This document shows, piece by piece, positions 19,079 to 21,056 of a stretch of DNA of 64,000 bases (positions within the stretch are counted from its first letter, which is position 1; the number at the start of each line of letters is the position of its first letter). The stretch is from positions 992,001 to 1,056,000 of the forward strand of contig OZ220732.1 in assembly GCA_965116905.1 (NCBI GenBank), read 5' to 3'. The translations under genes were made by a program, and so were the position numbers. Below the pieces are notes generated by a model. That model saw only the letters and a list, made by a program, of their open reading frames with translations, was not told the DNA's origin and ran no database searches. This DNA is from Longimicrobiales bacterium (GTDB lineage: Bacteria > Gemmatimonadota > Gemmatimonadetes > Longimicrobiales > Gaopeijiaceae).

Positions 19079-19111
19079 CATGCCGGTGTCCCTGGATTTG
19101 CCGCGGAAACG
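19079..19111 (+). repeat. Left 33-bp inverted repeat
   Basis: CATGCCGGTGTCCCTGGATTTGCCGCGGAAACG, exact reverse complement of 21024-21056. Confidence 0.9.
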
Positions 19112-19117
19112 CGGGAC

Positions 19118-20605
19118 TCACGCGGCCTGGGCGGGCGGTGGGGGATTGTCCTCGCGTCTGCGGCGGTCCGGAACCTCGGGTCTGCGGTCGGTTCTGCGCT
19201 CGGCCATGCCGGCCTGCTCCACCGCCTCGCTTGGCTCGCCGGCCTGCTCCACTGCCTTGTCGGGCTCGCCGGCCGCCTCGCCCGCCTCCGGTGCCTGCTC
19301 CACCGCCTCCCTCGCCGCGGCCTCGATCTCCCATGGGATCGCCGAGTCCAGGAGTCGTGCCGCTCCGTTGTACATCTCGCCGGGGGCGAGCGGGGGCGGG
19401 GGCGGCAGAGGCAGCTTCGGCTCCGGCAGCGGGGGCGCGCTCGCGACCGCCGCCCCGCTGCGCGCGAAGAACACCGCCCGGCCGCGCCGGTCGAGCGCCA
19501 TCCGGACCCTGCCCTCGTGCACGAGCCGGTGATGCCGCCGGCACAGCAGCACCGTGTTCGCCAGACTCGTCTCGCCGCCGTCGGCCCAGTGCCGGACATG
19601 ATGCGCCTCGGTGAACCGGCTCCCGCAGGCCGGGTACCGGCAGCCCCGGTCCCGTTCCTCGAGCGCCCGGCGGAGGTGCGGCGGGATGGTCCGCGTCTTC
19701 CGCCCCACGCTGACGACCTTGCCCTCCCGGTGCAGCATCCCCACCAGCGACGCATCGCACGCCATGCGCCGCGACGTCTCGGCGCTCACCCGCACCCCGT
19801 CGAGCTCCGACCGGCCCCCCTCGCCGTCCTCCTCCAGCGTGGCCATCTCGGTGTGCACCGTCACCTGGTACCGCTCGGCCCGCGTCCCGCTCGGCGTCGC
19901 CTCCGCGTCCCCTTCCCCCGCGTCGACCCCAGTTCCCGCGTCGGCCCCCTCTCTCGCGTCGGCCCCCGCCCCCAGCCCCGCCGCCAGCGCCCGCTCGGCG
20001 ACGAGCCCCATCGCATCGGCCCTGCGCTGGCGGCTCCGTGGCCGCGCATCGGGGTCCTCGCCCCGGTACAGCGCGTCGCTCGCGGCCTCGATGGCCCGCA
20101 TCAGCACGGCACCCGCCTCGGGCTCGAGCCGGCCCCGCACCACGTACGTCCCGTCCGCGGCGATGACGACCGACAACGTGCGGGCCCGGTGCCGGGCCTC
20201 TTCGGCCCCGATCTCGCCGTCGCGCGACAGGTGCTTCACCCCCCGCACCATGCGCTCCACCGCCGCGGCCGAGCCCTTGCGGGCGTAGTCGAGGAGTTCG
20301 GCCTCGGTCCGGGACGTGGCCACCCGGGTGATGGCCCGGGCCTTGGCGTAGGAGAGCCGCCCGGCCTTCATCTCGGCCGAGGTGGCGGGCAGGTCCTCGA
20401 GCGCATGCGCGACGCGCACGTTCTCGCGGCAGGTGGCGACCGTGCGCCCGGTCCGCCAGGCGAGCCACTCGGCGCAGGAGTCGAAGGCGTCGGCCCACCC
20501 CTCGCGGCGGTCGAACTCGGCGACGAGGGTGAGCATCTCGTGGGTGGCGATGTTGATCCGGGCGGCGAGTTCGGCGATCCGCTCTCCGAGTTGCGTGGTG
20601 TTCAT
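19118..20605 (-). CDS. DUF222 (13E12-repeat-like) domain protein with C-terminal HNH endonuclease
   Basis: LVAEFDRREGW..FDSCAEWLAWRTG, GRLSYAKARAITRVAT, RRMACDA, RDRGCRYPAC, EAHHVRHWADGGETSLANTVLLCRRHHRLVH; GGAGGA RBS. Confidence 0.85.
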   Translation of the reverse strand: MNTTQLGERIAELAARINIATHEMLTLVAEFDRREGWADAFDSCAEWLAWRTGRTVATCRENVRVAHALEDLPATSAEMKAGRLSYAKARAITRVATSRTEAELLDYARKGSAAAVERMVRGVKHLSRDGEIGAEEARHRARTLSVVIAADGTYVVRGRLEPEAGAVLMRAIEAASDALYRGEDPDARPRSRQRRADAMGLVAERALAAGLGAGADAREGADAGTGVDAGEGDAEATPSGTRAERYQVTVHTEMATLEEDGEGGRSELDGVRVSAETSRRMACDASLVGMLHREGKVVSVGRKTRTIPPHLRRALEERDRGCRYPACGSRFTEAHHVRHWADGGETSLANTVLLCRRHHRLVHEGRVRMALDRRGRAVFFARSGAAVASAPPLPEPKLPLPPPPPLAPGEMYNGAARLLDSAIPWEIEAAAREAVEQAPEAGEAAGEPDKAVEQAGEPSEAVEQAGMAERRTDRRPEVPDRRRREDNPPPPAQAA

Positions 20606-21023
20606 GTGATCCTCCAGGTTCAAGTCCGGCAACGGCTTATGTGTGGTGAGACTGTCGCACCTGAAATTTAACCATGGATTTTTCGGCCTTCCGTACGGCC
20701 GCAGGACGCACGATCTCGGGGCAAAACGACGTGGAAGGGCCGCCGAAGCCCGTTCGCCCGTCAGCGGGCCGCCGGTGGCTCCTGGGGGCCACTCGCCAGC
20801 GGGTCCCGGACCTCGCCGTAACCGCCATTTCAAAACCCGTCTATAGCAGGATCGGCCTGTGTTTCGACGGTTTGGGACAGGGGGGGTTGGAGAGCGCGAT
20901 CCCGGGATCGGTCCGGGGGGATGGGCTGCGGAGATGGGCCAATGGGCTAACGGATGTTGCCTCAGTCTGGCCTGCGGCTGGCCGGGGCACCGAGGTGGCG
21001 GCTGCCGCGGATCGCCCCCCCCA

Positions 21024-21056
21024 CGTTTCCGCGGCAAATCCAGGGACACCGGCATG
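21024..21056 (-). repeat. Right 33-bp inverted repeat
   Basis: CGTTTCCGCGGCAAATCCAGGGACACCGGCATG. Confidence 0.9.

Follow-up and report, generated by a model that had tools for sequence, protein, structure and literature searches.

A transposase-free DUF222-HNH element that may be homogenised within genomes at sites held in common by sister species

We analysed a 64,000-nucleotide stretch of a Longimicrobiales genome, referred to here as the window, which carries a DUF222-HNH gene between long inverted repeats. The results point to a transposase-free element that occupies the same sites across sister species and whose copies are homogenised within genomes, likely through binding and nicking at the element's ends followed by host recombination. 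We believe and doubt this reading in about equal measure. It is possible, though on balance doubtful, that DUF222-HNH elements form a distinct class of selfish DNA requiring neither transposase nor recombinase, in which the ends are marked by a ParB-like domain and cut by the HNH domain, and repair from sister copies both rejuvenates existing copies and seeds new sites. If true, such a class would account both for the hotspots of gene conversion at REP13E12 loci and for the size of the family, with more than 24,000 clusters (24,503 matched at 50% identity).

The host genome is a single contig of 4.2 Mb with 67.7% GC, and the named sequencing runs that cover at least one fifth of the window are sponge metagenomes. 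The repeat arms (19079-19115 and 21020-21056) are 37 nt long and 97% complementary. Their outer 33 nt match exactly, as the first-pass annotation had noted; about 1e-9 repeat pairs of such quality are expected by chance per 64 kb. The single gene between them (19118-20605, minus strand) encodes 495 amino acids with Pfam matches to DUF222 (E 6e-23) and HNH (E 2.4e-6), a low-complexity linker at about residues 211-238 and a variable C-terminal tail. Its stop codon ends 6 bp to the inner side of the left 33-bp repeat. The same annotation had reported no DDE, HUH or recombinase gene and no obvious target-site duplication; we found no other gene of any kind inside this copy and no target duplication.

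Each repeat is part of a conserved end unit of about 50 bp, the end module, which comprises a GTCCC pair 21 bp apart, a CATG palindrome and an inner CCGCGGAAACG. The downstream module (19067-19115, plus strand, reading inward) contains the left repeat (19079-19111), with two GTCCC motifs 21 bp apart, the CATG palindrome and what appears to be a parS-like half-site (CGGAAACG). The upstream module (21020-21068, minus strand) contains the right repeat (21024-21056). Between the gene and the upstream module is a conserved 5' leader (20606-20885, minus strand) that starts with another GTCCC pair, also 21 bp apart. The leader has no Rfam match, and a structured RNA in the element was rejected on the same ground. 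No LexA-like box was found in the leader or in the wider region upstream of the gene (20606-21300), and a scan of the window element for sigma-70 promoters and terminators found none. Contigs from an RNA run were rejected as evidence of expression: their depth follows copy number, so they provide none.

Searching the genome with the 33-mer, allowing up to 9 mismatches, gave eight matches forming four inward-facing pairs, each around a DUF222-HNH copy: W in the window, A at 319 kb, B at 634 kb and D at 4,179 kb. This supports the earlier proposal of a defined element with DUF222-HNH as its sole protein, here in multiple copies, and the check it had called for, whether other DUF222 copies share these ends, came out positive for all four. 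As all eight module matches in the genome are ends of these copies, the 33-mer is not a dispersed REP-like repeat here. Inversion between the repeats was considered and rejected, since all four copies hold the same orientation relative to their asymmetric outer bases. In copy B (L002:6463-9801) codons 126-347 are replaced by 3.3 kb carrying two genes (624 and 205 amino acids) that match no Pfam family; both end modules are retained. In relatives the two ends of an element differ at several positions, so the perfect match in the window probably reflects homogenisation.

An exact-pattern scan of the genome collection found the module in 114 stretches, 80 of which were used for a census. All 80 come from Gemmatimonadota records, and they hold at least 87 distinct modules: 65 face a DUF222-HNH gene (24 upstream of it and 41 downstream), 2 face non-coding DNA of the element, 10 have less than 1.5 kb of inward sequence in which nothing was found, and 10 are solo. 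Where at least 1.5 kb was available inward, 55 of 65 modules face the gene.

Inward repeats with motifs spaced by 21 bp resemble transposase binding sites. The modules might accordingly be the ends of a DDE insertion sequence that supplies transposase in trans to a non-autonomous cassette, with the nuclease gene a passenger. Such a cassette would fit the mini-elements and solo modules that occur, the 3.3-kb cargo of copy B and the targeting of the module by an IS110-family element. We nevertheless consider it improbable. No module lies in the genome outside the four copies, and none of the 24 ORFs inward of gene-less modules in the 80 of 114 stretches is a transposase. The one integrase-core gene near a solo module is on one side only. 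The raggedness of the ends speaks against it as well, and so does the lack of a short duplication in the comparisons described below. The modules lack the terminal hairpins of HUH elements, folding no better than shuffles (z +1.2 and +0.6; a palindrome outside them, z -1.55), and Pfam called only DUF222 and HNH in the element protein, with no hit to an HUH or tyrosine transposase.

Several relatives carry derivatives of the module. Gene-less mini-elements of 125-275 bp occur in G020 (L201:2670-2795 and L205:2919-3194), where another locus (L207:3368-3660) has six modules with a 51-bp period that form an in-frame repeat within an ORF. In six of the seven G014 copies (L043-L049) the ORF continues across the downstream module and the 18-bp repeat array that belongs to it, which lengthens the product by about 90 residues. 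The IS110-family element, with a 410-residue transposase, targets the ends of the DUF222-HNH element: three G001 copies carry it at an identical point on the module's inner edge, and a miniature of about 55 bp is found in a fourth (loci L039, L041, L118 and L037).

The suggestion that the repeats mark the precise ends of the element did not hold, as they are often doubled or tripled and ragged outside. They are subterminal. The four genome copies have 12-15 bases in common outside the 33-bp repeat. In relatives the modules occur in tandems of up to three with short GC-rich repeats between them, and copies from the same genome have 60-350 bp in common beyond the innermost module, with variable end points. 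Overall, the common sequence beyond the repeats runs for about 10-350 bp and ends raggedly. In the window a ragged subterminal zone of GC-rich short tandem repeats (21069-21200) follows the upstream module, and its first part is common to the copy at 319 kb.

Homology upstream of imuB with most close relatives stops at 19030, about 48 bp from the repeat. The first-pass annotation had placed the left repeat about 50 bp outside an imuB -35 box; the distance agrees with this edge, while the -35 box was only inferred and the sigma-70 scan gave no promoter there. An empty site upstream of imuB, which the annotation had proposed looking for, is present in G048 and G001. Elsewhere, two convergent genes leave a gap of about 22 bp that is empty in 7 of the 14 genomes matched and that the element fills in G014. 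Comparison of 15 loci with the window genome gave both flanks at 14 and an empty gap of less than 350 bp at 11. No short target duplication was seen in the 14 filled/empty comparisons, in which exact repeats close to both junctions were at most 4-7 nt long; the flanks are only 66-90% identical, so old duplications could have decayed. No common sequence was evident in the empty gaps inspected, and no within-species insertion with both junctions was seen. Element flanks map to 51 clusters on the window genome, and two of these correspond to the ends of copy B. Eight clusters, not counting W, A, B and D, have flanks from at least two genomes. This gives about 50 separate mapped sites in one genus.

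Genome position 825,210 is empty in the window genome, and a contig from another run has an operator-like palindrome and the downstream module directly after the stop codon there, making it a candidate recent insertion polymorphism. A contig joining 21307 to 19067 raised the possibility of a circular intermediate, which we rejected: a contig from another run that has this linker matches only 21274-21307, with foreign sequence before it. That foreign sequence maps to the other, empty site at 825 kb, so the joint represents a separate locus and not a circle.

Beyond the ragged zone is a 21-bp palindrome (21278-21298), likely a MerR/TipA-type operator because a TTGACC-19-TACCAT promoter-like site upstream of a MerR/TipAS gene contains a matching palindrome. 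The operator reading of that site follows the 19-bp-spacer rule. The window genome has 16 copies of the palindrome with up to 3 mismatches. Across the genus there are 16-29 such operator-like palindromes per genome (21278-21298 in the window and locus L404 among them), most of them without promoter context, some apparently in coding frames and some paired 0.1-3.4 kb apart. We rejected the palindrome as the true end of the window copy: it faces outward, and its presence at the empty site of G048 and G001 makes it a neighbour of the copy and not a part of it.

It might instead be a target, with the element integrating at or beside such operators, either through recombination or because the bound regulator tethers it. 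Of the 46 empty sites, 4 have the palindrome no more than 300 bp away (binomial p 3e-4 against ORF boundaries), and it is also present at the empty allele of the window site. It forms the outer end of several G014 and G065 copies. Copy x3 of G062 is flanked by it on either side, in direct orientation, where the empty allele has a single one. We think it improbable that this accounts for the element as a whole, as 42 of the 46 empty sites lack the palindrome and the G009 and G020 copies examined have none nearby. At two G014 sites the palindrome comes with the element: none of the orthologous loci examined that lack the element has it. It may be captured flank or a remnant of lost copies.

Across five close relatives, the element or a remnant of it occupies sites W, A, B and D in 15 of 20 cases (3, 4, 4 and 4 of 5), several of them cut by contig ends. 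Yet in a gene tree of 40 ORFs, with 5 short ORFs left out, all seven genomes with at least three rows each form their own clade. Same-site clades were rejected by the AU test at A (p 8e-42 and 7e-38), B (2e-31) and D (3e-101), and at two sites common to G014 and G065 (p 5e-5 and 0.02). Copies W, A and D are 98.2-99.6% identical to one another and 90.7-92.0% identical to those of G062. Three G048 copies share a premature TAG at codon 228, which could be a collapse artefact as that assembly is in 90 contigs. Sharing of sites across species by copies that match their genome-mates suggests that the copies likely spread and overwrite one another by nuclease-triggered recombination and not by ordinary jumping.

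The copies are mosaics in their pattern of variants. The first 830 bp of the four copies have 110 variable sites in blocks, and 70 neighbouring sites have the same pattern compared with 25+/-4 in shuffles (none of 20,000 shuffles reached it); most of the variable sites are non-coding, so clustered change may add to the block signal. At site A, the copy in G001 includes about 200 bp from the downstream flank of site D, of which about 70 bp belong to the convergent host gene, at a position where three element-bearing relatives have a toxin-antitoxin pair. This is the one clear case of host-gene capture; a second candidate (G062 x5/x3) failed. In aggregate, the extent of flank sharing did not distinguish pairs within a genome from pairs at the same site (means 22.1 and 22.9 downstream, 29.5 and 24.6 upstream). 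G014 and G065 have an identical junction at one shared site and an identical tandem-module layout at another, so the element ends are often stable.

One objection to a nuclease-driven model is that the same tree also results from ordinary RecA conversion acting between repeats of 2 kb. The element could then be a passive repeat, its modules autoregulatory operators and its protein kept for a host-level or addictive role, with ordinary recombination homogenising the copies and rare illegitimate events making new sites without the nuclease. This would account for the by-genome tree, the mosaics and the stable G014/G065 junctions. It also fits the rate of divergence, which between genomes is about the same for the element as for host genes (G062 host flanks are about 87-93% identical to the window genome, near the element's 90.7-92.0%). 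The palindrome of distant relatives, described below, is mostly intragenic (75 of 80) and not at both ends, and 13E12 loci recombine in M. tuberculosis, as the available text of one report describes (PMC13157036). The explanation leaves unexplained the roughly 50 sites in one genus, the inverted module downstream of the stop codon, the tandem modules and the captured flank beyond all homology. We judge it rather unlikely, though a serious contender.

Turning to the protein itself, the gene is under purifying selection. Among 22 copies dN/dS is 0.17 within genomes and 0.26 between them, and 0.07 and 0.18 for the HNH part. The HNH core (Pfam residues 325-363; 19517-19633, minus strand) was identified by Pfam and by an alignment of 46 proteins, in which H335, H336, N350, H359 and the Cys/His zinc ligands are invariant. 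The invariant residues and low dN/dS indicate an intact nuclease active site. The closest folds to the HNH part are those of IscB, McrA and an intron maturase.

The N-terminus is predicted to fold like a ParB/Noc DNA-binding domain (residues 20-133; 20207-20548, minus strand). In the model of the window protein these residues match the DNA-binding domains of ParB, Spo0J and KorB (Z 8.4, 7.6 and 7.5), the ParB match having an rmsd of 3.0 over 101 aligned residues. A better model, from a relative with 76% identity (pLDDT 88), has Noc, Spo0J or ParB as its top eight matches (Z 8.0-9.0), with Noc at Z 9.0 and rmsd 2.5 over 101 aligned residues. A Z of 8-9 is moderate for a helical domain, and Foldseek alone gave nothing at E 0.001. 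The wide fold search used the first model, whose middle part (about residues 135-305) is of low confidence; the better model was searched by Foldseek with re-ranking of its hits. Fold matches were confined to the ParB-like and HNH parts, barely covering the middle part, and Pfam called no ParB CTPase domain.

The family also has a candidate binding site. In 80 metagenome relatives (41-66% identity) we found the palindrome CGTTTC-NGCN-GAAACG, which resembles the parS and NBS consensus given in the available text of PMC7383237, inside the gene in 75. Elsewhere it occurs just downstream (16 of 64), upstream (5 of 50) and once in 126 kb further out. It falls at the codons for VSAET (19775-19789 in the window, minus strand), where 7.41 of 8 pairs are kept compared with 6.53 in shuffles (0 of 2,000, with kin not independent), and the pairing is preserved also where the amino acids change. 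In the window lineage these codons are not palindromic, and none of 39 copies has an intragenic palindrome; one half of the palindrome is found at the module's inner end. We infer that recognition moved in this lineage from the intragenic palindrome to the element ends, the end modules being putative recognition sites of the element protein. Long inverted ends as a family-wide trait were rejected: they occur at 2 of 40 loci of distant relatives compared with 1 of 155 control pairings, and are special to the window lineage.

For the nicking and repair model introduced at the outset, these features could combine as follows. The predicted ParB-like domain would bind the end modules and the HNH domain would nick there. 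The broken or nicked copy would then be repaired from a sister copy by host recombination, resulting in overwriting. Repair tracts that run past the module and rejoin by short homology could leave ragged ends, tandem modules, captured flanks and adjacent deletions, and the same intermediate might rarely land at a new intergenic site. The captured flank, which lies downstream of the gene, and the match of the HNH part to the endonuclease domain of a group II intron maturase (E 0.009) would also suit an RNA intermediate, in which a read-through transcript forms a panhandle through the inverted repeats and is reverse-transcribed in trans, primed at the HNH nick. This is very improbable: no reverse transcriptase was found in the genome, which is 97% complete, upstream flanks are common too and there is no Rfam match.

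By its domains and copy pattern the element belongs to the DUF222-HNH/REP13E12 family, with DUF222 followed by HNH and four copies plus two of a second subfamily in one genome. REP13E12 of M. tuberculosis (PF02720 + HNH) has the same domain pair in dispersed multicopy loci. The accessible text of one study reports 87 gene-conversion events in 14 REP13E12 genes, which 'lack defined biological function' (PMC13061034) yet are among the most recombined loci, and that of another places 13E12 loci at inversion breakpoints (PMC13157036). The window element differs in its inverted end modules of about 50 bp, its empty sites and its sharing of sites across species. It also differs in lacking a LexA-like box, which the second subfamily has, whereas the 13E12 genes are mostly LexA-controlled according to the portion available of PMC3381160. 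In the parts of PMC10589994 and PMC3592412 available to us the family is only mentioned. The listings and abstract openings covered, with few subscription journals among them, describe neither inverted ends nor a mechanism of mobility for DUF222-HNH.

ParB-parS, Noc-NBS and KorB-OB resemble the element in N-terminal fold (Z 8-9) and in the family palindrome (available text of PMC7383237); unlike them, the protein is fused to HNH, has no Pfam ParB CTPase domain and has its putative sites in or at the ends of its own gene. Insertion sequences with terminal inverted repeats, MICs and MITEs are alike in their roughly 2 kb, single gene, inward repeats, filled and empty intergenic sites and mini-derivatives, whereas here there is no transposase inside or linked, the repeats are subterminal, the ends are ragged and no short duplication is seen. 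Nor, in the window genome and the 80 of 114 stretches, are the ends shared with an autonomous IS, as those of MICs and MITEs are, and instead of recent identical copies we see old shared sites with concerted evolution. The element works like a selfish element but lacks the precise terminal repeats of an IS. Free-standing HNH homing endonucleases likewise consist of one nuclease gene and are thought to spread by cut-induced gene conversion. The element, in contrast, has many unrelated sites (about 50) and its predicted recognition site in its own ends, not in the empty allele. The nicking and repair model predicts that conversion depends on the HNH site and, if true, would be a mode of spreading distinct from both transposition and single-site homing. 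The lineage offers a candidate binding site of about 50 bp, filled and empty alleles, and the second subfamily as a specificity control.

The proximity to imuB looks incidental, this being one of about 50 mapped sites, and a functional link between element and imuB was not supported. imuA lies 8 kb from imuB-dnaE2 (window 17355-27756), with the element, a vWA/MotA-ExbB/LRR block and DUF1697 between them; G048 and G001 have neither the element nor the vWA block at the imuB site. imuB has its own LexA-like box, CCGAA-N6-CCGAA, belonging to the host and outside the element (19009-19024). This direct repeat, a candidate LexA box of the window lineage, is found before lexA (twice), imuB, imuA (as a variant) and both second-subfamily genes; further positions are 27772-27787 in the window and 2,293,761 and 2,293,786 in the genome.

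Those two further DUF222-HNH genes have 42% identity to the window protein and lack the module of about 50 bp; each is bracketed by a different inverted motif of about 22 bp. As the second subfamily has its own inverted motif, end motif and protein subfamily go together. Its two copies (L004 and L005) are 92% alike and have an intragenic palindrome as well as the LexA-like box. The pattern of that palindrome has 24 matches in the genome, two of which are fused to the subfamily's end motif.
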